Below, piece after piece: positions 1-11,577 of a stretch of DNA of 11,577 nt. The notes beneath the pieces are model-generated. The model did no database searches. It was not told the origin of the DNA and saw only the letters and a program-made list of their open reading frames with translations. A program made the translations under genes and the position numbers. This DNA is from a virus (lineage: Duplodnaviria > Heunggongvirae > Uroviricota > Caudoviricetes). The DNA is taken from IMG/VR virus record IMGVR_UViG_3300018477_000015, positions 1 to 11,577 of that record. One strand, written 5' to 3'. Each line of letters begins with the position of its first letter. The first letter of the stretch is position 1.

Positions 1-87
1 GTGCTGGATTACATTGACGCGGTGACGGCAACAGATACCAGCACCGCGCCTGATATTATTTGGCCTGCTTTCCTTGAGACTGATTAA
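1..87 (+). CDS. tail fibre assembly protein (Tfa), C-terminal fragment; 5' end lies outside the window
   Basis: Frame 1 from base 1 reads VLDYIDAVTATDTSTAPDIIWPAFLETD followed by TAA at 85-87. The DTSTAPDI(E/I)WP motif is, as I remember it, the conserved C-terminus of lambda-type Tfa chaperones. No start codon in the window, so it is absent from the ORF track. Confidence 0.55.
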   Translation: MLDYIDAVTATDTSTAPDIIWPAFLETD

Positions 88-316
88 CCTCAATCAATAT
101 TGGTTCCCCTTTCTCATTAATTGTTAGCTCCATGCCCTGAGGAATTTCTGTCATAGTAAAAAACCAGTTGTCCTCCGGTAATTCAATAGCCCCGGTCACA
201 TCATGAAGACCGGGGATTACTTCAGTCAAAGTAACTGGATTAAACAGGCGCACAATAAACCCTCCAGGAAAAAGCATTTGATGATGGTCTGCCGTCGTAC
301 ATCTGGCAGCGGGCAT
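56..316 (-). CDS. hypothetical protein; possibly a short alternate tail-fibre assembly gene of the invertible segment
   Basis: 86-aa ORF convergent with the plus-strand Tfa fragment (the two stops overlap across 56-87), an arrangement like U/U' in Mu-type G segments. It lacks the conserved Tfa C-terminal motif and overlaps the upstream ORF by 77 nt, so coding status is uncertain. Confidence 0.3.
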   Translation of the reverse strand: MPAARCTTADHHQMLFPGGFIVRLFNPVTLTEVIPGLHDVTGAIELPEDNWFFTMTEIPQGMELTINEKGEPILIEVNQSQGKQAK

Positions 317-623
317 AAAAACCGGTATTTGTTACCTGATCATCCACGATCATTGAAACGTGAACATTATTAGGTGTGCTCTCGTAATCTGTTCTTATTC
401 TTTCCGCGATACTGATAAAACGTGAAAGTTTAGGCAGTGCAATTGGGTAAACGACTTTAGCCAGTCCATTATCATTAGACCCACCCGTTCCAAAGACTTC
501 TATTGCACCATCTGACCAGCGAATCCATGCACCATTGGCATTAGCTCCTCGCTGAATGATATATCTGGCTTCTCCCAAACCAACGTTTATGAAAATGCAG
601 AAATAACGATCAAATGGCATCAT
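240..623 (-). CDS. side tail fibre C-terminal receptor-binding segment, alternate unfused copy reading inward through the inversion crossover site
   Basis: The C-terminal portion resembles lambda Stf-type fibre tips by eye (YPIALP, VTNTGF, terminal WRVYCAPV versus lambda IRVMAIGY from memory). The ORF runs through the 26-bp crossover site at 570-595 and has no convincing RBS, as expected for a variable fibre segment expressed only after inversion fuses it to the constant part. Confidence 0.5.
   Translation of the reverse strand: MMPFDRYFCIFINVGLGEARYIIQRGANANGAWIRWSDGAIEVFGTGGSNDNGLAKVVYPIALPKLSRFISIAERIRTDYESTPNNVHVSMIVDDQVTNTGFYARCQMYDGRPSSNAFSWRVYCAPV
570..595. other. Hin/Gin/Pin-type inversion crossover site (26 bp, two imperfect inverted 12-bp half-sites around a central AA)
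   Basis: TTCTCCCAAACC-AA-CGTTTATGAAAA. It matches my recollection of hixL (TTCTTGAAAACCAAGGTTTTTGATAA) at about 20 of 26 positions and lies 55 bp upstream of the invertase start, the usual position. Confidence 0.6.
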
Positions 624-649
624 TCCTGCTTTTGTCAGGGAGATCTACC

Positions 650-1204
650 ATGCTTATTGGCTATGTACGTGTGTCAACAAATGACCAGAACACAGATCTA
701 CAACGTAATGCGCTGAACTGTGCAGGATGCGAGCTTATTTTTGAAGACAAGATAAGCGGTACAAAGTCCGAAAGGCCGGGACTGAAAAAACTGCTCAGGA
801 CATTATCGGCAGGTGACACGCTGGTGGTCTGGAAACTGGACCGGCTGGGGCGCAGTATGCGGCATCTTGTCGTGCTGGTGGAGGAGTTGCGCGAACGAGG
901 CATCAACTTTCGTAGTCTGACTGATTCAATTGATACCAGCACACCGATGGGGCGTTTTTTCTTTCATGTGATGGGGGCCCTGGCTGAAATGGAACGAGAA
1001 CTGATTGTTGAACGAACAAAAGCTGGACTGGAAGCTGCTCGCGCACAGGGACGAATTGGTGGACGTCGTCCCAAACTTACACCAGAACAATGGGCGCAGG
1101 CCGGGCGACTAATTGCATCAGGAGTTCCTCGCCAGAAGGTGGCGATCATTTATGATGTTGGCGTATCGACTTTGTATAAGAAGTTTCCGGTCGGAGATAA
1201 ATGA
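650..1204 (+). CDS. pin: serine recombinase, DNA invertase (Pin/Hin/Gin/Cin family)
   Basis: Translation from ATG 650 begins MLIGYVRVSTNDQNTDLQRNAL... with the catalytic-serine motif and C-terminal HTH (GRIGGRRPKLT...STLYKK), near-identical in pattern to e14 Pin as I recall it. AGGGAGA sits 6 nt upstream of ATG 650. The upstream ATG at 614 would add a non-conserved extension. Confidence 0.92.
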   Translation: MLIGYVRVSTNDQNTDLQRNALNCAGCELIFEDKISGTKSERPGLKKLLRTLSAGDTLVVWKLDRLGRSMRHLVVLVEELRERGINFRSLTDSIDTSTPMGRFFFHVMGALAEMERELIVERTKAGLEAARAQGRIGGRRPKLTPEQWAQAGRLIASGVPRQKVAIIYDVGVSTLYKKFPVGDK

Positions 1205-1284
1205 AACCGTAGCACGTCGTATGCAAGAACGTGCCACGGCTGGCTGATAAGCTTGTAAAAATATTGAACAGGGAGTGGAGCATT

Positions 1285-1932
1285 CTATGAAGCTAATTTG
1301 TTTAATTTCATTTGTAGTGACTTTACTTCTTGGTCGATAATGTCGAATCCCTTATTGACAGCATCTCTTAGCTCTGCATCAATATTTTTTATCCCTTGAG
1401 CATAATCTACCATTACATTTATTTTTGCATCATGTAATCTCTTATACATGGTTTTATCTTTGTTATTGTCTGCCATGCCAATAAGGATTTTTTCATAATC
1501 CTCAATGAGTTTGTTGTTTCCTTTAAATGATTGTATTAATGAGCGTGAATATGTGTATATGTTAATTATTGAGTCTCTAGCAGAATCATTTAGTTTTGCA
1601 ATGACATTCGCATTTTTCTCATAGAATGTGAAATTATCATCCCCTACAGGGAATGTGAGAATCAACATTTGTCCCGGTTTTATATTATCAATGTGTGTTT
1701 TCATCCTTTTATTATATAAATTGATTAGGGTGAAAACTTCTCCCTTAACTCCTTTTAATACTGAAAGTTGTAATTCAAGGGATTCTCTTTCTGTCTCTAC
1801 TTTAGACAGCTTAGCTTGTTGGGTAACTCCTTTTAGGGTAAACCATCCGCCAATAAGAGTACCAACTAGAGCTGTGAGGGAGGAGGATAACCATCCAGGT
1901 ATGCTATTTAAAAGATTACTAAATTCACTCAT
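1285..1932 (-). CDS. hypothetical membrane-anchored protein (single N-terminal TM helix, then coiled-coil and globular region); AT-rich accessory gene
   Basis: 215-aa ORF. Residues about 10-32 (IPGWLSSSLTALVGTLIGGWFTL) are hydrophobic, followed by a charged heptad-like stretch. Low GC compared with flanking phage genes. No family recognised. Confidence 0.6.
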   Translation of the reverse strand: MSEFSNLLNSIPGWLSSSLTALVGTLIGGWFTLKGVTQQAKLSKVETERESLELQLSVLKGVKGEVFTLINLYNKRMKTHIDNIKPGQMLILTFPVGDDNFTFYEKNANVIAKLNDSARDSIINIYTYSRSLIQSFKGNNKLIEDYEKILIGMADNNKDKTMYKRLHDAKINVMVDYAQGIKNIDAELRDAVNKGFDIIDQEVKSLQMKLNKLAS

Positions 1933-1990
1933 TATAAGTACTCGCTAATATTGAACGATATATATATCAAATTATTATAAAACTCGTCAG

Positions 1991-2269
1991 CTACTGGAGA
2001 AGGCTACCTGAACTTCGATCTATTCCTGCATCCATATAGTTGATGGTCTTCTGGAGCTCTTCGATTAGGGCAACAGCTTTTGCTCGAGAAATGCATATTA
2101 GTTGATCCGGAAATTCTTGTAAGGGCCAGTTTGGTATACAGGCCATGTTATCAGTGAAGGATGCAGACAAGTAAACTTCATTGGTAACCAGAGAATAGCT
2201 TACCTCAAAATTGGTGAGTTCCGGCAAACTGCTAACGTTTGACTCTTTTCTGCGCATAATATTATCCAT
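1991..2269 (-). CDS. hypothetical small protein; start uncertain (ATG at 2269 giving about 92 aa, or upstream ATG at 2419 giving 142 aa)
   Basis: Open frame in the AT-rich island. The N-terminal 50 residues of the long form are Cys/Trp-rich and contain the C9T6 tract, so the shorter form is favoured. No clear SD for either start. Confidence 0.35.
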   Translation of the reverse strand: MDNIMRRKESNVSSLPELTNFEVSYSLVTNEVYLSASFTDNMACIPNWPLQEFPDQLICISRAKAVALIEELQKTINYMDAGIDRSSGSLLQ

Positions 2270-2346
2270 GACTGTAATTATGTACAGGTGATGGTCTTCA
2301 ATTTCGAAGAGGGAGTCAAGGGGGAGTCTCAAATGAACCGTTATAG

Positions 2347-2361
2347 AAAAAAGGGGGGGGG
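2347..2361. repeat. homopolymeric tract A6G9 (C9T6 on the minus strand)
   Basis: Direct reading: aaaaaa at 2347-2352, ggggggggg at 2353-2361. Confidence 0.9.
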
Positions 2362-2409
2362 ATCTTTGTGTTGCTGAACTTATGCAAAATTTTTTTGCAC
2401 CATAAATCC

Positions 2410-2670
2410 AACAACACATTCAATAACACATTGCTGTATCACTATGAAAATAAATGTGTTTTTATTTGATTTCACACATATCACAATTAATACAGCGTTT
2501 AGTAATTAGTAAAGACATTTCAATGAATTACCGTTAAATCATTTTAAAATCAGTAAGTTGTATCGAGTTTGTATGCTTTACTGTCATTAACTTACTGTAT
2601 GTTGATCCAGTGTATTTAACCTTGATAAACTCAGTCCAGCAACACAAAACCGCAACACATTGCATTTTGT
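2410..2670. promoter_or_regulatory. AT-rich integrase-upstream region with repeated short motifs; candidate attP arm-site or int regulatory region
   Basis: AACACATT at 2413-2420, 2425-2432 and 2654-2661, with an inverted copy at 2453-2460. A 9-bp perfect inverted repeat CAGTAAGTT/AACTTACTG at 2551-2559 and 2589-2597. Repeated TTGTAT and TTACTGT motifs. Confidence 0.3.
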
Positions 2671-2732
2671 CCCGTAGAAAAGACTTGTATGTGTGTGCTT
2701 GTTTTCTGCGCCTACGCAGATAAGGATTGAGA

Positions 2733-4130
2733 ATGCCGCGCACTGTAACACATAATCCGGATAGCCCCAATAATGACGATGTTTTAGCCGCATCTGAAAA
2801 ATGGGACGCCTGTAAACCCCCCTATACCAGCGCACACATGAAAATCTGTGTTGCTGCCGCCAAAATCATCCTCGCTGCTTCCGGCGTGGCTCGCCGTTCC
2901 AAATACGAAAAAGAGAACTATCTCCGTATCGATTTCAGCAAAGCCGGTAAGGTTACATTTTACGCCGAGTTTCCAAAAAAGATGGGCCTCAAAGGTAAAA
3001 AGCTCGGCGAGTGGCCGGAGCTCGCTATTCAGCTGGCGCGCGAAAAAGCGCTAGGTATGGCTGACGGTGGCCTGCGTGCAGAGTCCGTACATGCAGCGCT
3101 GGAAATGTACCGGGATGACCTCAAAGCCAAAGTCGCCCGGCAGAAGCTGAGCCCGGACAGTTTCACAACCTACGGGGTGCGTATCGACCGGATTAAAGCA
3201 ACGTTCGGCGAGCGCGAGGTGTTCAGCGACGTAACATACAATCGGCTGGTGGAAGTGCTGGACGAGTGGATCGCTACTCGCTCGAACAATAACGCCCTGG
3301 AGTTGTTTGCCGAGCTCCGTCGGTTCTGGAAGTTCTGCGCACCTACTCTTTGCAACGGCCGCAATGTTGCCGCCAGTCTGCCAGATGATTATGTTTCCTC
3401 CCGCGTACAGAAACCTACCCCCACACGGCTTTTTACCGATATTGAATCAATCGCCCGACTCTGGCTCAATGTTGCTGCCTGCACCTCTGTACACCAGAAG
3501 AATGCTGTTCGCTTCATGATCATCACTGGTGTTCGTCCGATTAATGTCCATAACCTGCGCTGGGACTACGTTCACGAGGAGGCTGGTGAAATTGTTTATC
3601 CGGAAGGGGTTATCGGCATGCGAGGGGCTATGAAAACACAAAAGGCTTTCCGCCTGCCGATAACCCCTGAGATCCGGCGGATTATCGACGAGCAGAAAGC
3701 CTGGCGTGATTCAGTTCCTGAGTGCAACAGGGATTATGTATTTTTGCAGCCACGTGATCCAATGCAGCCATTTTCAAAACGATCACTAGATAAGCTGGTG
3801 AAAACATACAGCCCGGACGGGGCTGTAAAAGGAATAAAACATGATGGGACTGTTAAAGGGAAAGACGGTGCATTTAATACGATGTGCCGTAAATTCCTTA
3901 AGAGCAATGTTATTGCCTTGATGAAGGAAAGAGGCTATTCCCGCTCAGACCGAAGGGAAATCAGCCTCCTTTGCCTTCACCACTCCAGCAAGTCAGATGA
4001 CCCGATGGCAGAACATTACGACTTTTCTGATGAGATTTTACAGGAAGAGATTGCGTTGAAGCGCGAAGCTTTCGAGGCTCACGAGCGGAGCATACTTGCG
4101 CAGGTGGCATTGCTACGGCGGCGAGGTTAA
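2733..4130 (+). CDS. int: tyrosine-type site-specific integrase (P4-like, with N-terminal arm-binding-type domain)
   Basis: 465 aa from ATG 2733, with AAGGA 6 nt upstream; the track's 2727 start is a TTG. The N-terminus (YLRIDFSKAGKVTFYAEF...LGEWPELAIQLAREKA) fits the P4-int arm-binding pattern. The catalytic-domain landmarks are TGVRPINV (Arg), HDGTVKG and CLHHSS...AEHY (His/Tyr region). Confidence 0.85.
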   Translation: MPRTVTHNPDSPNNDDVLAASEKWDACKPPYTSAHMKICVAAAKIILAASGVARRSKYEKENYLRIDFSKAGKVTFYAEFPKKMGLKGKKLGEWPELAIQLAREKALGMADGGLRAESVHAALEMYRDDLKAKVARQKLSPDSFTTYGVRIDRIKATFGEREVFSDVTYNRLVEVLDEWIATRSNNNALELFAELRRFWKFCAPTLCNGRNVAASLPDDYVSSRVQKPTPTRLFTDIESIARLWLNVAACTSVHQKNAVRFMIITGVRPINVHNLRWDYVHEEAGEIVYPEGVIGMRGAMKTQKAFRLPITPEIRRIIDEQKAWRDSVPECNRDYVFLQPRDPMQPFSKRSLDKLVKTYSPDGAVKGIKHDGTVKGKDGAFNTMCRKFLKSNVIALMKERGYSRSDRREISLLCLHHSSKSDDPMAEHYDFSDEILQEEIALKREAFEAHERSILAQVALLRRRG

Positions 4131-4327
4131 TACTGGCTGCGACATTTTTGAATAAAAGCGTCGATATTTCGGCGCTCATAACGAACTACTTTTGCACTGA
4201 AACGAATTGGTGCCAGGATAGCCCGATGACGATGCTTAATATTCCACTCACATAGCGTTTTCTGTGTAATACCTAACTTTTGGCATACTTCATCCGGGGT
4301 GAGTAAATCGTCGGGTTTCTCGCTCAT
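4127..4327 (-). CDS. AlpA/excisionase-family small HTH DNA-binding protein (candidate recombination directionality factor)
   Basis: 66 aa. LLTPDEVCQKLGITQKTLCEWNIK...ILAPIRFSAKVVRYERRNIDAFI fits the AlpA/Xis winged-helix pattern. Its ATG overlaps the helicase stop (ATGA at 4324-4327) and its stop overlaps the int stop convergently. Confidence 0.65.
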   Translation of the reverse strand: MSEKPDDLLTPDEVCQKLGITQKTLCEWNIKHRHRAILAPIRFSAKVVRYERRNIDAFIQKCRSQY

Positions 4328-5718
4328 GCTATACCTCTCTTTTTCATGGCATCGAGCAGGATGTCCTGCACTGTTCGTTTTGAGTTGCGCCGCTCCATCA
4401 CCATTTCATCCATAGTGTCGGCAGCAATAATGTGGTGAATAAATACCGGACGATTGTGTCCGGCCTGTATCTGCCTGGTGGGGCCGATACGTTCAATAAT
4501 TTGCTGATATTGCTCCAGGTCCCACCAGTGTGAGAAAAATACCAGTATATTTCCGCCGTCCTGCATGTTCAGGCCGTGGCCCGCGCTGGCTGGGTGTGCA
4601 AAGAGAACAGGAATCTTTCCGGAATTCCAGTCGCGCAGTGTCTGTGGATCCTGGTCGAGGTGACGACCGCGAGGGAATGCTTTAAGCAAGCGTTCAAGAT
4701 CGTGTTTCCAGTGATAAGCAACCAGCACAGGTGCGCCAGCTGCTTCGGTCAGTATGCTGTCCAGCGCCTGTAGTTTGGTGTCATGCAGTTCTGACCAACT
4801 TCCGGTGTCATCTGTGTATACTGCGCCGCTGGCGATTTGCAGACACTTCAGTGTCTTTGCCGCGGCGTTCGGTGCTTCGATGCCTTCGCCATTCAGCTCG
4901 AGGAACATTTCCTTTTCCATTTCACGATACTGCTGACGGGCCTTCGGCGGCATATCCACGCGGATTACGTTATGGATGGGGTCTTTGATATCGAACCAGT
5001 CGGCCGCATCCAGCGAGAGGGTTACATCGGCTAACGCTCGCTGTATTTCACCCTGTGAGTGAGCAAAAGGCTCCAGTTTGGTCCAGCTCTGCCCCGGAAA
5101 CTGTATCGAGTTGAACCAGCGTGAGGTAAACGCGCCGTAAGTGCGCCCGAGACGTTGCCCCTGGTCCACAAACCACGATTGTCCCCACAAATCTACCAGG
5201 CCGTTCGGTGCTGGCGTACCGGTGAGATTTATCCAGCGCCGGACATACTTATGCGCCACTTTGCCCAGCGCCGCCGCGCGCTTACCACCACCGCGCAGCC
5301 GGAAGGATTTTAGCCGGGTGCTTTCATCTGGAATGACAGTACCGAACGGCCATCGTTCTCCCAATTCTTCAACCAGCCAGACAAGGTTATCGTAGTTGAT
5401 GGTGAACACGCTTGCGTTGCTGTTCGTCAGCGCCATAGAGCGCGCTTTGGCATTACCAATAATTGGCTGCACCTCGATATTGCGCAAATGTCCCCACTTC
5501 AGTGCTTCATCCGGCCATGTGCTGGCAGCCACGCGCAGCGGCGCGAGGACCAGTGCGGGGCATGTTTCTGCCCCTGCCATAAAGAGATCTTCCAGCGCAG
5601 TGAGCGTTGCCACGGTTTTACCCATTCCCATCCCCGCCCAGATGTTGCCGCGCAGGGTTTCGGTTTCGTGGTTGATAATGAGATCTTGGTAGGGGCGAGG
5701 TATATATTTTGGGGGCAT
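4324..5718 (-). CDS. SNF2-family ATP-dependent helicase (phage replication or recombination module)
   Basis: 464 aa with RPYQ, Walker A AGMGMGKT, DExx box IPDESTRL, motif III LTGTPAPN and a C-terminal GLNMQ...ERIGPTRQIQAG block resembling SNF2 motifs V/VI. AGGAG sits 9 nt upstream of ATG 5718. Confidence 0.85.
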   Translation of the reverse strand: MPPKYIPRPYQDLIINHETETLRGNIWAGMGMGKTVATLTALEDLFMAGAETCPALVLAPLRVAASTWPDEALKWGHLRNIEVQPIIGNAKARSMALTNSNASVFTINYDNLVWLVEELGERWPFGTVIPDESTRLKSFRLRGGGKRAAALGKVAHKYVRRWINLTGTPAPNGLVDLWGQSWFVDQGQRLGRTYGAFTSRWFNSIQFPGQSWTKLEPFAHSQGEIQRALADVTLSLDAADWFDIKDPIHNVIRVDMPPKARQQYREMEKEMFLELNGEGIEAPNAAAKTLKCLQIASGAVYTDDTGSWSELHDTKLQALDSILTEAAGAPVLVAYHWKHDLERLLKAFPRGRHLDQDPQTLRDWNSGKIPVLFAHPASAGHGLNMQDGGNILVFFSHWWDLEQYQQIIERIGPTRQIQAGHNRPVFIHHIIAADTMDEMVMERRNSKRTVQDILLDAMKKRGIA

Positions 5719-5732
5719 ATAATATGGCTCCT

Positions 5733-5768
5733 AAACAACAAAAGGCCAATTTAGGCCTTTTGTTGTTT
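5733..5768. other. perfect 15-bp inverted repeat with 6-nt loop (possible attenuator, weak terminator or processing hairpin)
   Basis: AAACAACAAAAGGCC-AATTTA-GGCCTTTTGTTGTTT. It lies between the stop of the 305-aa gene (5781) and the helicase RBS, and is U-rich on either strand. Confidence 0.5.
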
Positions 5769-5780
5769 TAAAAATGTTAT

Positions 5781-6698
5781 TTATAATAGTGCTGTTACTA
5801 TTGCATCTTTAAAAATATTTTCTTCTTCATTTATTAAAGGTGATGACAGATGAATAATTACTTCTTTTCCTGTCAATACTATTTGCTCGACTTGAAATCC
5901 TGCGTTGTGTAGTCTTTGGCGTAACTTTTCTAGTGCTGATTTTGATATACTAAATCCTTCACTCCTTATAGTATAACTGGCAACTCCATTTTTAATAATA
6001 TCTACAGAGTTGTCAATTTCCTGCTGCGAGTAATTTTTCGGTGAGTCGAAAAATCTGGATTTTGTCGTTGCTGTTGCCCTAAGAGATATCAATAATGATT
6101 TGATATCTTTAATCTCAGATGCCAGATACTCAGTTTCTGATACTTCTTTCTGGTCTAGTTGTGCAACTTTGAAAGTGCCAAAATGTTTGAGGAATGTTGT
6201 GTATTCAGGATCAGTTACTGACTTTAAATATGTTTCTTTTATCTTGCTCGCAAGTCTTTCTTTGAATAAATTGATTGATTGGTATCTTAAATCCGAAGGG
6301 TACTCTAAATGTTCAATTGATGAAATGTCAAAGCTATAAGGAGTGCGCTCGTCCTTAATAATTACGGTCGGTTTGTCAAATGCGAGACGCATTCCTAATT
6401 CAAACATTACATTAGCGTTTCGAGCACTTATATCGCAAACAACTATGGGGTTTTCATAAAGATTTTGAACAATTCGTTTTTGTATTACTGCAACATCATC
6501 ATCTGAACTTACCAAATTTGCCTTGAATCCGGCATCATTTGATGCTTCACAAATAATGTCATGAACATTTCTCCAATGTCCAGTGGGATAACCTTCTATG
6601 TCCGCAATTGGCATAATAATGCCGCATATATGAGGTGGCATATTTTTGTTGTCTTTTACATCATCTTGGTTTATTTCTTTCGTTTGTTGCTTAGCCAT
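5781..6698 (-). CDS. hypothetical protein with N-terminal TIR-like / nucleoside 2-deoxyribosyltransferase-like (Rossmannoid) domain and uncharacterised C-terminal domain; AT-rich insertion
   Basis: 305 aa. N-terminal region has ICGIIMPIA, then DDDVAVIQKRIVQNLYENPIVVCDISARNANVMFELGMRLAFDKPTVIIKDE and EYPSDLRY. The FE(L)G acidic motif after a buried strand is typical of TIR-like (PF10137-type) and NDT-like folds as I recall them. GC content is clearly lower than in the flanking helicase and VRR-NUC genes. Confidence 0.5.
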   Translation of the reverse strand: MAKQQTKEINQDDVKDNKNMPPHICGIIMPIADIEGYPTGHWRNVHDIICEASNDAGFKANLVSSDDDVAVIQKRIVQNLYENPIVVCDISARNANVMFELGMRLAFDKPTVIIKDERTPYSFDISSIEHLEYPSDLRYQSINLFKERLASKIKETYLKSVTDPEYTTFLKHFGTFKVAQLDQKEVSETEYLASEIKDIKSLLISLRATATTKSRFFDSPKNYSQQEIDNSVDIIKNGVASYTIRSEGFSISKSALEKLRQRLHNAGFQVEQIVLTGKEVIIHLSSPLINEEENIFKDAIVTALL

Positions 6699-6713
6699 AG
6701 CTTACACAGACTC

Positions 6714-6998
6714 CTATTGTAATTTTTTGCCTAATATACATGAAAGCTCCTTACTATCCAGTACTACCACGGTAAAGCCCAGTTTTCGCAGACGTTCATG
6801 CTCGCGCAACTGATCAGGTCGTGGTGGTTTGCCTGGTGCTTTGCATTCGACAAAGACGATGCGACCGCCGGGTAGCAGAACAATGCGATCTGGTACCGAG
6901 CGGAGACCGGGAGATACGAACTTAAAAGCAACCCCGCCAGCCTTTTTTACTTCAGCGACGAGGTGCTTTTCGATTAGGTTTTCACGTTCATAGGCCAT
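6714..6998 (-). CDS. VRR-NUC domain nuclease (PD-(D/E)xK family)
   Basis: 94 aa. GLRSVPDRIVLLPGGRIVFVECKAPGKPPRPDQ contains the D...E-x-K signature in the size and arrangement typical of VRR-NUC, a usual partner of phage SNF2 helicases. Confidence 0.8.
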   Translation of the reverse strand: MAYERENLIEKHLVAEVKKAGGVAFKFVSPGLRSVPDRIVLLPGGRIVFVECKAPGKPPRPDQLREHERLRKLGFTVVVLDSKELSCILGKKLQ

Positions 6999-7192
6999 TA
7001 GCTTTCGCCTTCCTGCTTTTTGCGTTTCTTCATGCAGATAGCGCAGTTCTCAGGATGGTCATGCCATTCGTCAATCCTGATACCTGTGAACATCCATTTT
7101 CCGCATAGTGATATGGCTTCCCCCGAATTAAAGAAATGTGCTTTTTTCGACAGGGCGGGGAACCCCCAACCTTTATTATCGATATTAGACAT
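6998..7192 (-). CDS. small putative zinc-binding protein (64 aa), translationally coupled to the VRR-NUC gene
   Basis: Strong SD (AAGGAGG, 6 nt before ATG 7192). Its stop overlaps the VRR-NUC start (TAATG at 6996-7000). Contains a C-x13-H-x-H-x4-C-x2-C motif (SLCGKW...EWHDHPENCAIC). Confidence 0.55.
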   Translation of the reverse strand: MSNIDNKGWGFPALSKKAHFFNSGEAISLCGKWMFTGIRIDEWHDHPENCAICMKKRKKQEGES

Positions 7193-7370
7193 CGTCCACC
7201 TCCTTACGCTTTTCGCGCATGTTCTGCATCAGACAAAAATCAAACCGACGTTCGCTTTGGCCCAGACCTGCATCGCCCGGTCGTACCCGCTGGACTGTTC
7301 AAGGCGCAAAGCCTCCCGCGCAGTCCGGTAATAAAGCGGACTGTCCCGGTATTTAAATGACATAGGGTTT

Positions 7371-7403
7371 TTATTCCCAAATAAAAAACCCCGCAATGCA
7401 GGG
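7371..7403 (-). terminator. rho-independent terminator downstream of the 253-aa gene (minus-strand sense)
   Basis: Minus-strand RNA forms CCCUGC-AUU-GCGGGG (6-bp stem with one G-U pair) followed by UUUUUUAUUU. It lies about 24 nt after the stop at 7428. Confidence 0.5.
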
Positions 7404-7427
7404 TTGTAATCAACAATAAGGGGGTAA

Positions 7428-8189
7428 TTACGAGGAAGCGTTAGCTATTTGAGCTTGTGTAAATTCGAAACCAGAATTTTGTAACCGTTGCACTAGACGA
7501 GGAACTGTTTCACGTACATGGTCGTTGAAATTCAGATACAAAATCCCGTTAGCATCAGAAGGCTGTTCTAGGTGCTGTTTCTGAAGGATTGCTACATTGC
7601 TGCGCCCTAAGGACGAAAGAAGCATACCCATCTCGAGTACAACGTTCTGTCTTGCGCGGGGTTGGATTTCTGCTTCACCGGCGCGCTTTGAGTATCCCAT
7701 ATCATCAGGTGTCAAAAGAACAATCCCGAAACGGGTAGCAGTTTGTCCTTGCCCAATTTCACGTTCAAGCTCTTCAATAATGGTGAGTCCAGTCCCTCCC
7801 GTATTCTGCAAAATGAAATGGTCTGGTAATCCAAGTTTATGAAGGATTAGCTCAAGTTGTTCCTTTGCAGTATGGTCATGGCCGTGAACAATGAATATCT
7901 TTTTGGGAAGCTCAGATGGCTGTTCTACGGCTAGTGGTGTTGCCGTGGGGGGCGTTCCTAAATGGGACATTATTGCAGTTTCAACATTGGGACGTTCTTG
8001 AGGGTTACCTTGAAACTGAATGGTCCGGGTGGTGTAAAGGTTAACAATTACGCCATTCGTTAAACGATAGCAGTCATAAGTCTCACGCTGTTCGTGGGAA
8101 AAATTGGTGAACCCACACTCCCTCAAAAAGTCAGGAAAAGATTCTCTCGGGTATGGATAGGTGATCGGCATTTCAGTTAGTTCCTGCAT
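7428..8189 (-). CDS. TIR-like domain protein (C-terminal TIR-like/NDT-like Rossmannoid domain, uncharacterised N-terminal domain of about 95 aa)
   Basis: 253 aa. C-terminal half has KIFIVHGHD, then FGIVLLTPDDMG...PRARQNVVLEMGMLLSSLGRSNVAILQK and QPSDANGILYLNF, the same motif order as the 305-aa protein and matching my recollection of the PF10137-type TIR-like family. AGGA about 10 nt upstream of ATG 8189. Followed by its own terminator. Confidence 0.55.
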   Translation of the reverse strand: MQELTEMPITYPYPRESFPDFLRECGFTNFSHEQRETYDCYRLTNGVIVNLYTTRTIQFQGNPQERPNVETAIMSHLGTPPTATPLAVEQPSELPKKIFIVHGHDHTAKEQLELILHKLGLPDHFILQNTGGTGLTIIEELEREIGQGQTATRFGIVLLTPDDMGYSKRAGEAEIQPRARQNVVLEMGMLLSSLGRSNVAILQKQHLEQPSDANGILYLNFNDHVRETVPRLVQRLQNSGFEFTQAQIANASS

Positions 8190-8253
8190 AAGTATTGTTC
8201 CTTTAATTTACTCGAATTCAGCATGTCGCCATAGCTCGATAAGGTGAGTTATA

Positions 8254-10350
8254 TCAATCTTTTTTGTAGTGGTACGCCTCAAAGCCGCCAGCGTTCAGCG
8301 GAATATCGGGTGCCCATTCGGGGTTAGTGGAGAGAAGCGCGGAAAGCGCTTTATCGTTGAAATCTTCTGTGTCTGGTGCTTCGGTGATCACCTCGTCGTG
8401 TACCGTTAGCACAATGCTGTAACCGGCACCCTCGATCAGCGGCATGTTTCTGGCCAGAACGTCGCGGGCGGCCGCCTGGGTGACGTTCTCCACCAGCTTT
8501 CCGCCGTAGGTTTTGAGTCGTTGCCATTTACGCGAATAAGAGTTAACACCCATGTAGGTGATATTCCCTTGTTCGATAACCGGAGACGGGTAGCATACAG
8601 CGCGTCCGGATGGTAGCTGTATGCGCAGCCACGCGCCATCACGTCGGATTTTAAGATAGCCGCAATACAATGTTTTTTGCGGTATGGCGATTGCTGTGCG
8701 GACAGTGCGCTCCAGCTCGTACCAGAAATCGCAGGTCGCCGGGTGCGCCCTGCGCCACAGGCGCTTGAGCGAGTCACATGCGATGAATACACGCTCGGAA
8801 AGGCCAAAGGTCGACTTACGTTTAACCGATTCGTCGTACCAGCTTTTCGCCTCGCGGATAACATCGCGGGGAATGTTTGGCAGTGCGGCGTTCGCCAGCT
8901 CGTCGAGATCGAGACCGTAAACCAGAGCAAAAGTGATGAAAGCCGATACACCACCTCCATAACCCAGACCGAGTTCCATGACTTTACCGATCTGACGCAT
9001 GTGTTTATCAACATCATCTGGTGCAATATCGAAAGCTTTTGCATACGCCAGTTTATATAAGTCCGGACCCGTTCCAGCGTCATACTCTCTGAATGCATTC
9101 AGTTTCCATTCTTCTCCCGCCAGCCATGCCAGCATACGGCCTTCAATGTTTGACAAGTCACTTACCACCAGTTTTTTGCCTGTTGGCGCGATAATGCAGC
9201 CACGTAACGCTGAACTGGTTAGTTCCATGATATTGTCAAACAGCAGGTCTGCACATCCGGCTTTCAGTGCTTCGATGCCTTCGTCTATTTGTTCCTGTTT
9301 TAGTGAAGGGCGGGGAAGGTTCTGGGGCTGGAATAGCCGTCCGGCCCAACGACCGGTACGTGACGCCCCGCAGAACTGTAGCGTACCGCGTAAGCGCCCG
9401 TCGTGGCTTACGCCTTTCATCAGTGCCTTGTATTTACTGGTGCTGGTAGTACTGGCTTGCAGGCGGATAGCCAGCAGTTCTTTCACGGCAGATGATAAAT
9501 CGGGGTCGGCCATACGACGTTCCAGGGTACTGCGTTGCATGTCTGGTAGCTCCACACCGTAGGATTCAACGATGTGCTTAATCAACGCGTCCCGTTGTGT
9601 GGCTGCCTGCACTTCGCCATCAGTCATTTCCTGTGTACGCTTTGCCAGGCGCTTTTGCTCCTGGTCTACCGCTTCGATCGCAGCGCGCGCGAGTTGCATG
9701 TCCATGCAGACGCCCCGGTCGTTGATCTGCTGATCACGATGCCAGAGCGCCAGCTCTGTCCCCTGATAATTCCACTTCGGCAGACGTTTATAGACTTCGC
9801 GCATTGCTTCGATATCCAGTCCGGCGTAAGCAACAAAGCGCCGCCATTCTTCCGGATGGGTTTTACTGGTGGCCCGACGCAGTTTGCTGTTTTTCGGATG
9901 TGGCTTACAGAACAGCTGGATCAGCGCTTTACCTTCTTTGTCCTTCGCTTTGTCTTGCGGGACGCCTAGTACTTCGCAGAGTTCCCCCAGAGACCCCGGG
10001 AGACCGTGCGCCAGCGCCTGCACCATCGTGTCGCGCCAACGTTCGACTGGCGGTGCCAGTCGCGGCATTGCATAACGCAGAACGGTGCGGTCGAAGTGAG
10101 AGTTATGGAAATAAAGCAGGGTTTCAGGGTCTGCGATTGCTTCGTATAAGCCGTGTGGAATACCACCACCGGCAGTGATATCCCACACGTTTACTGGCCC
10201 GTCGTTGATAGCCCATGCGAAAAGCATCACTTCAACGCCTTCGGCATACGCATGGGTACCGTTCGTAATAGGGATTTCGCAATAGGTTTCCAGGTCGCCC
10301 CAGAGAATACTTTGATGTTGTTTATTTGAGGGGACTATATTATTTTTCAT
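8254..10350 (-). CDS. family A DNA polymerase with N-terminal 3'-5' exonuclease domain (phage-type PolA)
   Basis: 698 aa. Exo motif LWGDLETY, polymerase motif [21 protein letters not shown], motif [17 protein letters not shown], motif C LTVHDEV. Confidence 0.9.
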
Positions 10351-10384
10351 ATGGGCAAACTAGCTAATAAAGTTGAGGAAAAAA

Positions 10385-10588
10385 ATGTCTGAATCTAAGT
10401 TCAAACCTGGAGACCGCGTACAACATCTTTCTGGTGGGCCTGTTCTTGTGGTTGTTAGCACAGGATATATTCCTGCAACAGCTTTTAATGGCGACTTCAT
10501 TCGCGTAACTTGTGAATTTTGGGATGAATCTAAAAAAGCTTTCGTAAAACAGGATTTTGTTGAAACTTCTCTTGAAGATTACGAATAA
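10385..10588 (+). CDS. DUF2158 (YodC-like) small protein
   Basis: About 67 aa from ATG 10385, with GAGGA 5 nt upstream; the track's 10373 start is a TTG. KPGDRVQHLSGGPVLVV...CEFWDESKKAFVKQDFVETSL fits the GD.V.L.SGGP...C.WFD...K..F pattern of the DUF2158 family. It lies opposite in orientation to the surrounding replication genes. Confidence 0.65.
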   Translation: MSESKFKPGDRVQHLSGGPVLVVVSTGYIPATAFNGDFIRVTCEFWDESKKAFVKQDFVETSLEDYE

Positions 10589-10604
10589 CTCATAACACAA
10601 TCCT

Positions 10605-10628
10605 CAAAGCGCCCCTAAGGGCGCTTTG
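10605..10628. terminator. bidirectional hairpin terminator between convergent genes
   Basis: Perfect 10-bp stem CAAAGCGCCC / GGGCGCTTTG with CTAA loop, followed by GCGTTT on the plus strand. It sits 17 nt after the DUF2158 stop and 4 nt after the DUF2815 stop. Confidence 0.55.
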
Positions 10629-10632
10629 GCGT

Positions 10633-11181
10633 TTAAATCAGTGCTTCAGCATCAGCACCTTCGCTGATATCGTCGAAATCGTCAGCGCTTGCCACTCCGC
10701 CGCCAGCGAATGCATCGCCGTCTCGCAGGAACTGGACTCCGCCGAGTGAGGCATTAATGCGTTTACCGAAATTATTGTCCTGTGCCCAGATATCGATAAC
10801 GGCGTTTACATAGCACCCTGCATAGGGACGTCCATCAGCCTGAATTAGTGGCGAACGATCGCGATCAAGAACAGCTGGGCGCGCTTTGTTAGCAGCATTC
10901 AGGAAGAAATTACCGGGGAAGCCTTCATACTCTGCTTTTTCATCACCATCATGCAGGCACAGATTGAGTTTTTTCTCCAGTTGGTTATAAATGGGCTCCC
11001 ACTTCTCTCCCCATTTTTCCTTCGCTACCTGCTTCATAGCTTTACGGATTTCTTCCAGTTGTGGGTGTTTGGGAGACATTAAAAATACTGCGGAGAAACG
11101 CGGATCGCCTTCGCCGTTTACAGTTTTAGCTTCAAACAGAGACGGGAAGGCCAGACGAACATTGTTCAGCTTCAGTTTCAT
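10633..11181 (-). CDS. DUF2815-family phage protein (ssDNA-binding-like), with acidic C-terminal tail
   Basis: 182 aa beginning MKLKLNNVRLAF, the N-terminal signature I associate with DUF2815 proteins found next to phage family A polymerases. AAGGAAA SD 8 nt upstream. C-terminus is DDFDDISEGADAEALI. Confidence 0.65.
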   Translation of the reverse strand: MKLKLNNVRLAFPSLFEAKTVNGEGDPRFSAVFLMSPKHPQLEEIRKAMKQVAKEKWGEKWEPIYNQLEKKLNLCLHDGDEKAEYEGFPGNFFLNAANKARPAVLDRDRSPLIQADGRPYAGCYVNAVIDIWAQDNNFGKRINASLGGVQFLRDGDAFAGGGVASADDFDDISEGADAEALI

Positions 11182-11196
11182 GGGTATTTCCTTAAA

Positions 11197-11577
11197 TCAG
11201 ATGAGGTCTGCGGTTAGCGTATCGTCGGATACGTCGTCGAAATCATTTACAGGGTTGATATTGAGTGCGGGGCGTGGGTCTGACTCGGGAACGACGGTTG
11301 GTTTACCATCAGCTCGTGTTATCAGTGCCTCGACTTTTGACCAACGGCGCGGACTGGCCTTTTTGATAAGTTTTTCGGCTTTTGTGGGACTAATAAGTTT
11401 AAAGTCGAATACTTCTTCAGTTTTGTACCTGAACTGGTCCTTCAGAAGTGCGCGAGCTGCCTCTTCATCACTCCAGGCCCGGTTACCTTGTTTTCCTGTT
11501 ACCAGTTTAAACCCCGGTACCGGATGTCCGGCATTGAGTTCATTGTGAACCCGGTCCCGTACTGCCTTTAGCCAGGA
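11197..11577 (-). CDS. phage replication-module protein, C-terminal 126-aa fragment (5' end outside window); possibly the DUF2800-type nuclease that usually precedes DUF2815
   Basis: Minus-strand frame is open from the window edge to TGA at 11197-11199 and ends ...NDFDDVSDDTLTADLI. The stop lies 15 nt upstream of the DUF2815 start. It is not in the ORF track because there is no Met in the window. The family assignment is a guess from gene order. Confidence 0.45.
   Translation of the reverse strand, partial: SWLKAVRDRVHNELNAGHPVPGFKLVTGKQGNRAWSDEEAARALLKDQFRYKTEEVFDFKLISPTKAEKLIKKASPRRWSKVEALITRADGKPTVVPESDPRPALNINPVNDFDDVSDDTLTADLI

Follow-up and report, generated by a model that had tools for sequence, protein, structure and literature searches.

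INTRODUCTION

In phage T7, two replication proteins end in similar acidic tails, ..EDGDF in gp2.5 and ..NDTDF in gp4, and both tails dock on the DNA polymerase gp5: that of gp2.5 binds the front basic patch K587/K589/R590/R591 (PMC12339929), and those of gp4 bind two basic patches (PMC12593628). [quoted passage not shown] A module composed of duf2800, gp2.5 and polA genes has also been described (PMC8093625). We report here an analysis of this module in the replication region of a temperate Escherichia coli phage, namely in positions 1 to 11,577 of the IMG/VR virus record IMGVR_UViG_3300018477_000015 (this whole stretch of 11,577 nucleotides is called the window below). Two neighboring proteins of the module, the SSB (DUF2815) and a nuclease (DUF2800), end in similar acidic tails, and these tails are conserved among relatives and change jointly from lineage to lineage.

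RESULTS AND DISCUSSION

Two neighboring proteins and their tails

The DUF2815 protein is the phage's own T7 gp2.5-like SSB. It matches PF10991 with 149.9 bits (cut-off 26) over residues 1–175 of 182, and this is its sole Pfam match, which places it outside the family of bacterial homotetrameric SSBs; its relatives in PDB are 4jg2 (1.4e-16), 5odj, i.e., Enc34 ORF6 (6.3e-16), and 4klk (2.3e-14). Binding of single-stranded DNA is predicted from the sequence. In an AlphaFold2 model of the full protein, built with 77 homologues, the mean predicted local distance difference test score (pLDDT) is 85.2, the core is beta-rich with a long helix at residues 42–70, and the linker preceding the tail falls below 50 at residues 159–162. 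The 126 residues of the DUF2800 protein contained in the window match PF10926 with 84.4 bits (cut-off 21; profile positions 270–368 of 368), and the full protein of 433 amino acids was taken from phage vB_EcoM-606R2, a near-identical phage whose DNA is about 99% identical where the two align. Its motifs ..GTADG..IHDLKYGKG.., an N-terminal Cys (WMRCPGS) and CRFCKAKAIC were fitted by eye only to a PD-(D/E)XK nuclease with Cas4-like cysteines. For the DUF2800 protein of another phage, a disordered C-terminal region has been predicted (preprint, bioRxiv 10.64898/2026.07.14.737667).

A preliminary description of the window, made by a model from the sequence, had noticed that both proteins end in similar acidic tails of the DFDD type, and direct reading of the gene ends confirmed this. 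The nuclease ends in ...NDFDDVSDDTLTADLI (...PRPALNINPVNDFDDVSDDTLTADLI) and the SSB in ...DDFDDISEGADAEALI (...GGGVASADDFDDISEGADAEALI), and the two ends were likewise read as ...NPVNDFDDVSDDTLTADLI and ...ASADDFDDISEGADAEALI. The two tails have a common plan, in which a linker is followed by motif 1, [DN]-D-F-D-D-[IV]-S, and then by an acidic stretch leading to [AD]-L-I-COOH (coordinates are listed in Table 1). Acidic residues occupy 7 of the last 19 positions in the SSB and 6–7 of 19 when both window tails are considered, with no basic residue. Both tails terminate in L-I, with nine residues after motif 1 and the Phe internal, 13 residues from the end; a terminal Phe of the T7 type is not present on either window tail, and some other lineages end in ..F-A, ..FLD or ..W.

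The resemblance of the tails goes beyond composition: the Smith–Waterman score of the last 25 residues of the two proteins is 34, against 18.9 +/- 3.8 in composition-preserving shuffles of the nuclease tail, and only 38 of 20,000 shuffles reach 34. The alignment giving this score spans NDFDDVSD/DDFDDISE only, and the common [AD]-L-I end is not counted in it. The DNA 11-mer tcgtcgaaatc, also pointed out in the preliminary description, is indeed present at both gene ends (plus strand, 10670–10680 and 11234–11244; coding strand GATTTCGACGA), but it merely encodes D-F-D-D with identical codons; elsewhere in the tails the codons differ (Ser tcc/agc, Leu ctc/ctg, Ile atc/att), also at the flanking synonymous sites, and the DNA match therefore adds nothing to the peptide match.

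Within the window phage, only the nuclease and the SSB bear the tail: the Prim-Pol/DUF5906 protein is without it, and the SNF2 helicase of the window has no tail and ends in ...MKKRGIA. When the two window tails were read directly for the beta-clamp-binding motif QL[SD]LF or its relatives, none was present. We rejected this type of motif as a reading of the tails on the grounds that they contain no Q-L-x-L-[FL] peptide, are acidic and differ among phages of one host.

Conservation and joint variation of the tails

Comparison of orthologues, which had been proposed as a check, gave a positive answer for both proteins. The SSB tail is kept in 120 homologues, down to 62% identity, as [DE][DE]F[DE]D[ILVM] followed by about eight residues and L[VI] or variants, the ends being L-[IV], F-A and similar. 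F169 varies hardly or not at all in two alignments of SSB homologues, and the aromatic residue at this position of motif 1 is found family-wide, being present also in 4jg2, 4klk and Enc34. Among 69 diverse genome loci, the DUF2800 gene lies nearly always directly upstream of the SSB gene. In the 61 non-redundant loci used for counting, the strict motif [DE]F[DEA][DENPT][ILVM] occurs within the last 30 residues of 36 DUF2800 proteins and 49 SSBs, and a loose pattern of motif 1 occurs in 49 of the DUF2800 orthologues. Other mechanically called open reading frames of at least 100 amino acids in the same loci have the strict motif in 4 of 1670 cases, two of the four being a primase-helicase (in locus L137; L numbers denote our loci) and a protein in L114, both mentioned again below.

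The tails of the two proteins are more alike inside one genome than across genomes. The mean tail score of same-genome pairs is 30.8, against 26.3 +/- 0.66 after permutation (0 of 10,000 permutations reach it), and the terminal dipeptide is identical between nuclease and SSB in 27 of the 61 genomes, where 9.5 are expected; shared ancestry inflates these permutation figures, and the independent evidence consists of at least six joint switches of tail type and of the distant phages described below. In enterics, both proteins have DFDD[IV]..LI, and in Burkholderiales-type elements and BPP-1 the pair has D[DE]FADV..DLV and DEFDDI..DLV. Six loci (L143–L148) have switched to GF..[VA]A on both proteins, a Saccharibacteria metagenome-assembled genome (L139) to LPDL on both, L142 to DGF with a W-containing end on both, L133 to a GEAA end on both, and L111, L117 and L102 to a [DE]F[AVL] end on both. 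The nuclease and the SSB are non-homologous, so common descent explains the differences between lineages but not the agreement of the two tails within a lineage. In Acinetobacter, the nuclease ends directly after motif 1 (NDFDDLTA), which indicates that motif 1 is the common core and the acidic-hydrophobic end a second, separable element.

Tails on other replication proteins

In twelve distant phages, for which annotated genes were compared, at least two replication proteins have a common lineage-specific end in every case (12/12). SAP012, a Chi-like phage close to Enc34, has such ends on its primase (..WPGDEDEEV), nuclease (..AWDDEDDEEV), SSB (..SEYDDEEV) and SNF2 helicase (..GVWDDEEE), and in Ruegeria phage DSS3-P1 the primase-helicase, nuclease and SSB all end in [ED]DLLG. 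In Streptococcus phage phiD12, the D5 primase-helicase ends in ..DDDFLD and the SSB in ..DDDFLN; in Jerseyvirus and Dhillonvirus, ..T[ED][GD]DL.. (with DDL[EK]-like ends) is common to helicase and nuclease; and in PBC1, BF1-3, BcepC6B, AXL_1, LuckyBarnes, P2559Y and APSE-7 a [DE]F-type motif is common to nuclease and SSB. The feature spans phages of Bacteroides, Bacillus, Streptococcus and Brevibacterium. Further bearers were found among the loci, namely the AEP primase-helicases of L098 (ending ..EFTDLDVNKK) and L137 (..SSDFADLM), the RdgC of L111 (..AESEFA, matching the SSB of the same locus) and a protein of 103 amino acids in L114. Many other high-scoring open reading frames in the locus scan were mechanical products in the wrong strand or frame and were disregarded.

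A tail was also looked for on two further enzymes of the module. The C-termini of 68 PolA proteins score like background and none of the PolAs of the 12 phages bears one; likewise, VRR-NUC C-termini score like background and none among the 12 phages has a tail. The preliminary description had suggested that the tails dock onto a common partner, and this suggestion is supported by the conservation of the tails, by their co-variation and by the presence of the same tail on primase-helicase, SNF2 or RdgC proteins and not on PolA or VRR-NUC.

Three observations on these protein families are recorded here in their own right. In Acinetobacter prophages (L097, 2824–3114, minus strand; L099; L103), a Cro/C1-type helix-turn-helix protein of 96 amino acids ends in ..APKEFDDLSESKGATA, which is motif 1 of the SSB of the same phage placed on a transcription regulator. 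In the SSBs of Dhillonvirus Oekolampad (L156, 6968–7777) and Jerseyvirus K22 (L157, 6995–7621), acidic tracts give way to a C-terminus that is strongly basic (..PRKRRRR and ..PRRERRRNR), unlike the purely acidic tails of other lineages. In the PolA of a Parapusillimonas prophage (L132, 8147–11173; 1008 amino acids), GGKL and ENVTQA are separated by an insert of about 300 residues, which starts with CIAEGTLV, ends with VHNC and has an intein-like appearance.

A proposed docking peptide and its candidate receptor

Joint drift of a short peptide, borne on flexible linkers by several non-homologous proteins of one machine, is the hallmark of a motif that docks on a single common receptor. We lean, by a modest preference, towards reading the tail as a portable, lineage-specific docking peptide for one phage-encoded receptor, most likely PolA, where we infer the binding, the singleness of the receptor and its identity alike. 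Phages of E. coli and Salmonella bear differing tails (ADLI, DDEEV, DDLE, DDLKD), and the receptor should accordingly be phage-encoded and co-diverging rather than a conserved host protein. The peptide would tether the SSB and the DUF2800 nuclease alike to a single shared site of this receptor, and in other lineages a primase-helicase, an SNF2 helicase or RdgC would bear the same kind of tag. If the receptor is the family-A DNA polymerase, as it is for the gp2.5 and gp4 tails on gp5, the SSB-coated template and the nuclease would stay at the polymerase or be passed to it, and the nuclease could serve in end resection during recombination-dependent replication or in removal of flaps or primers.

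The polymerase or the helicase had been named as possible partners in the preliminary description. Of these, the helicase has become less likely because helicases themselves bear the tail in some lineages, while the polymerase, whose chance of being the receptor we regard as about even, is the best candidate for four reasons: it is a conserved core enzyme without a tail; it belongs to family A, and the SSB is related to gp2.5; both T7 tails bind gp5; and the T7 front basic patch aligns with the PolA of the window. The fourth reason is a weak point. In a MAFFT alignment anchored by LDGRK/LPSGR, KWKRRW of T7 gp5 (K587/K589/R590/R591) stands opposite YLKIRRD (K567-I-R-R) of the window PolA, and most lineages whose tails are of the DFDD type have a net charge of +3 to +6 over the 22 residues before LPSGR; the window PolA has several basic stretches, one of which aligns with the T7 patch.

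Besides the shared ancestry behind the permutation figures, several findings weigh against this reading. The charge of the PolA basic stretch does not clearly track tail type across at least 40 lineages, and the K-x-R-R cluster is retained in the BPP-1-like group only. In L142, a Deltaproteobacteria metagenome-assembled genome, the DUF2800–DUF2815 pair is followed (3957–5738) by a PolB-like polymerase of 593 amino acids that replaces PolA (PHROG 1252 at E = 3e-188, weak PDB matches to Pol II, no Pfam match), and the tails still match each other there in a unique W-ending type. PolA is therefore not a universal receptor, though "the polymerase" still can be. Moreover, the tail lies on a neighboring SSB molecule in the crystals of gp2.5, of Enc34 ORF6 and of two further DUF2815 proteins (PMC5686142), which is direct structural evidence in favor of the rival receptor treated below. 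The AlphaFold2 model, for its part, gives the SSB tail a pLDDT of 48–66 with one helical turn at residues 166–168 and no confident placement.

Alternative explanations

The crystal contacts lead to the strongest alternative, which we hold to be possible but clearly less probable than the docking on a polymerase. The receptor would here be the OB-fold core of the SSB itself: on a neighboring SSB, the tail would bind the N-terminal strands and the concave sheet, with cooperative filaments or autoinhibition as the result; copies of the tail would let the nuclease, and in other lineages the primase-helicase, SNF2 or RdgC, plug into the SSB, and DUF2800 and DUF2815 would form a coupled exonuclease–annealase pair, functionally like lambda Exo/Red-beta. 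The Enc34 tail contact buries 842 A^2, and loss of 21 C-terminal residues alters the DNA specificity of ORF6 (PMC5686142). Flexible acidic tails, however, often make opportunistic contacts in crystals, and the low pLDDT of the tail in our model means that no confident docking on its own core was obtained. The gp2.5-like proteins of temperate phages are recombinases in vivo and often stand beside an exonuclease (PMC2896510; PMC8093625), the whole family keeps an aromatic residue in motif 1, and the pairing of tails holds in L142 with its PolB-like enzyme. Against this, the helicase and nuclease of Oekolampad share ..TD[DE]DL.. while the SSB tail of this phage is of a quite different acidic/basic type, and in T7 the experimentally established receptor for both tails is the polymerase. 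The two models are not mutually exclusive, and both may be true, which is the case for gp2.5 in T7.

A broader proposal, which we regard as rather unlikely, is that the tail constitutes a lineage-specific "address code" of a private replisome, and that the SSB core, the polymerase or both of them have a pocket that reads this code. If this were true, any protein gaining a peptide of about 16 residues, be it a nuclease, a primase-helicase, SNF2, RdgC or even a Cro-like repressor, would join the replication and recombination machine of the phage, and divergence of the code among phages of the same host would insulate this machine from those of the host and of co-resident prophages. A pocket on the SSB would amount to an inverted SSB hub, in which the clients have the SSB-like tail and the SSB has the pocket.

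Each acidic tail might, alternatively, be a DNA mimic gating the DNA-binding site of its own protein, with no common partner and a likeness that is compositional or coincidental. As cited in PMC5686142, the acidic tails of T7 gp2.5 and T4 gp32 compete with DNA for their own clefts, and the two window tails are simply very acidic; but composition-preserving shuffles seldom match the observed score, likeness within genomes exceeds that between genomes, and in single genomes two to four non-homologous proteins have exactly the same lineage-specific end, for instance DDLLG, DDEEV or GEAA, which would be unexpected if separate cores were served. We consider this explanation improbable.

Even less probable, in our estimation, is that the tails mimic the tip of the host SSB and thereby recruit or titrate the chi subunit, PriA, RecQ or ExoI. 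The E. coli SSB ends in D-F-D-D-D-I-P-F, and this tip is nearly universal in bacteria. Motif 1, DFDD[IV], does resemble the DFDDDI part of it. Interactions of phage recombination proteins with host SSB tails have been reported (PMC6393309; PMC13490951). The end [IL]-P-F-COOH, however, occurs in 0 of 61 SSBs and 0 of 61 nucleases, and none of the 120 homologue tails ends in PF; motif 1 is internal in the window, with further residues following it; and the tails vary sharply within the same hosts, jointly on both phage proteins, whereas the host tip hardly varies. On these grounds of motif and of host-independent variation, mimicry of the host tip was rejected. The tip of bacterial SSB had served as the precedent in the preliminary description, but the docking of T7 gp2.5 and gp4 on gp5 is a closer one: none of the 122 tails ends in IPF, and phages that share a host differ in their tails. 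The further idea that one of the two proteins mimics SSB has to be abandoned in that form, for the DUF2815 protein is the phage SSB itself and the nuclease is the one with an SSB-type tail.

That the similarity is a functionless trace of recent DNA exchange between the gene ends, by gene conversion or duplication of a tail segment, is scarcely credible in spite of the adjacency of the genes and their 11-base identity, and gene conversion was rejected by codon statistics, because the 11-mer is only a same-codon D-F-D-D amid differing synonymous sites, codon identity at identical residues over the 61 loci (182 of 403) lies under the 214.5 expected from codon usage, so that the similarity is maintained by selection on protein and not by DNA exchange, and the feature persists in lineages as distant as the Bacteroides and Brevibacterium phages named above.

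Comparison with known systems

As in T7, two different replication proteins of one phage have similar acidic ends anchored by hydrophobic residues, the SSB being a structural and sequence relative of gp2.5 and the polymerase belonging to family A like gp5. The systems differ in that the tail is borne, besides the SSB, by a predicted PD-(D/E)XK nuclease here and by the helicase-primase in T7; in that the tail here is bipartite with an internal aromatic residue (DFDD[IV]) and an L-I end, whereas T7 has an essential terminal Phe; and in that the tail here is found on up to four proteins in some lineages, its binding to a polymerase being presumptive. Enc34 ORF6 (PDB 5odj, 5odk, 5odl) has the same Pfam family, the OB fold and an unstructured acidic C-terminal segment, with an aromatic residue at the motif 1 position (DAYDE, against DDFDD in the window), and the Enc34 replication module contains, in the same way, primase, PolA, VRR-NUC and helicase (PMC5686142). 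The published work on Enc34 covers the SSB tail only, i.e., its crystal contacts and a change of double-stranded DNA binding on truncation, and not tails on other proteins of the module; its relative SAP012 has four tail-bearing proteins.

The C-terminal tip of bacterial SSB (..DDDIPF) is likewise an acidic peptide that ends a flexible linker on an SSB and recruits partners, with a local DFDD resemblance. The proteins here, by contrast, belong to PF10991, lack the terminal IPF and have a lineage-specific rather than near-universal sequence, and several proteins would bring one tail to one receptor, whereas the bacterial tip is one tail for many receptors. Lambda Red Exo and Red-beta are comparable in being encoded by adjacent genes and in coupling a 5'-processing nuclease with an annealing/binding protein on the same DNA end. 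There, Exo is bound by a folded C-terminal domain of Red-beta (PMC6393309); here the same short peptide is on both partners, an arrangement suggestive of either the SSB core or a common third protein as the receptor.

Several acidic tails directed to one polymerase in T7, and the SSB tail of this family in Enc34, are already known, and the principle is not new. In the literature within our reach, which mostly excludes subscription journals, we found no description of a DUF2800 nuclease with an SSB tail, nor of the bipartite form with an internal aromatic residue, the spread to as many as four proteins or the lineage-specific joint drift. The present case would carry the T7 principle beyond a single model phage into a group that is very large and diverse, and would add a nuclease as a new client. 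DUF2800–DUF2815–PolA is among the commonest replication modules of phages and prophages, and a peptide marking membership of the module would give an experimental handle on receptor finding and on compatibility between phages. The tail could also predict accessory proteins of the replisome from sequence alone, such as the RdgC of L111 and the primase-helicases of L098 and L137, and could explain the disordered C-terminus of the DUF2800 nuclease.

Genes and minor features of the window

On the minus strand, the genes are arranged in the order of DUF2800 nuclease, DUF2815, PolA, TIR-domain protein, VRR-NUC-like protein, SNF2 helicase and helix-turn-helix protein. A 5' nuclease domain of the window PolA was not detected by Pfam, and the counterpart of the putative VRR-NUC protein in phage 606R2 is annotated as a nuclease. 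With about 99% identity, the stretch containing the SSB and nuclease genes recurs in 156 complete E. coli chromosomes and in phages vB_EcoM-606R2, 689R2 and 611R5. Matches to the SSB of the module number 1,292 among phage records and run into the thousands among metagenomic proteins.

Table 1. Positions of the tail elements and of the replication genes in the window.
Feature	Position	Strand	Basis or remark
DUF2815 / Enc34_ssDNA-bd protein, T7 gp2.5-like SSB and annealing protein, 182 amino acids	10633..11181	-	Pfam PF10991
SSB, Gly-rich flexible linker AFAGGGVASA, residues 157-166	10684..10713	-	pLDDT; G[GS]G nearly invariant among homologues
SSB, tail motif 1 D-D-F-D-D-I-S, residues 167-173; aromatic anchor, aliphatic residue three positions on	10663..10683	-	
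SSB, tail motif 2, acidic-hydrophobic C-terminus E-A-L-I-COOH	10636..10647	-	
DUF2800 nuclease, predicted PD-(D/E)XK (RecB/Cas4-like) type, C-terminal 126 residues; gene continues past the window end	11197..11577	-	Pfam PF10926
Nuclease, Pro/Asp-rich linker before the tail, ADGKPTVVPESDPRPALNINPV	11248..11313	-	orthologues keep ...GKP[ST]V.P.SD[PK]RPAL...
Nuclease, tail motif 1 N-D-F-D-D-V-S	11227..11247	-	
Nuclease, tail motif 2 A-D-L-I-COOH	11200..11211	-	
Family-A DNA polymerase (PolA) with 3'-5' exonuclease domain	8254..10350	-	Pfam DNA_pol_A, DNA_pol_A_exo1
PolA, basic stretch K567-583, speculative docking site	8602..8652	-	alignment with T7 gp5 front basic patch
SNF2-family helicase	4324..5718	-	Pfam SNF2-rel_dom, Helicase_C
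VRR-NUC nuclease, putative	6714..6998	-	sub-threshold Pfam VRR_NUC, 18.5 bits against cut-off 23.8, E = 0.0021

The near-identical matches in E. coli genomes and phages all break off immediately past the SSB gene, near position 945 of the 1278 in the query. The interval between SSB and PolA (10351–10632) is variable: the window has a plus-strand open reading frame of 71 amino acids at 10373–10588 with no Pfam match, and the same slot of phage 606R2 (L001, 8946–9673) holds a gene of 209 amino acids on the opposite strand. A few bases past the SSB stop codon, at 10606–10627, there is a perfect 9-bp stem, AAAGCGCCC-TTAG-GGGCGCTTT, for which a simple scan gave a hairpin in another register; judging from its symmetry, the stem could serve as a terminator for transcription from both sides.

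Between PolA and VRR-NUC (7428–8189, minus strand) lies a gene for a protein of 253 amino acids with a TIR domain of the CAP12/Pycsar-effector type (PF10137, 108 bits), which is found also in phage vB_EcoM-606R2 and may be defence or counter-defence cargo. At 5781–6698 (minus strand), the window has a single open reading frame of 305 amino acids without a Pfam match, where 606R2 (L001, 13293–14214) is annotated with two genes of 163 and 103 amino acids; the two share internal and C-terminal sequence with the window frame, which suggests a frameshift or indel difference between the copies. At the prophage end, a Hin/Gin-like serine recombinase (MLIGYVRVSTNDQ...) was recognized by eye at 614–1204 (plus strand), and an open reading frame of 467 amino acids at 2727–4130 (plus strand) is, also by eye, tyrosine-integrase-like.

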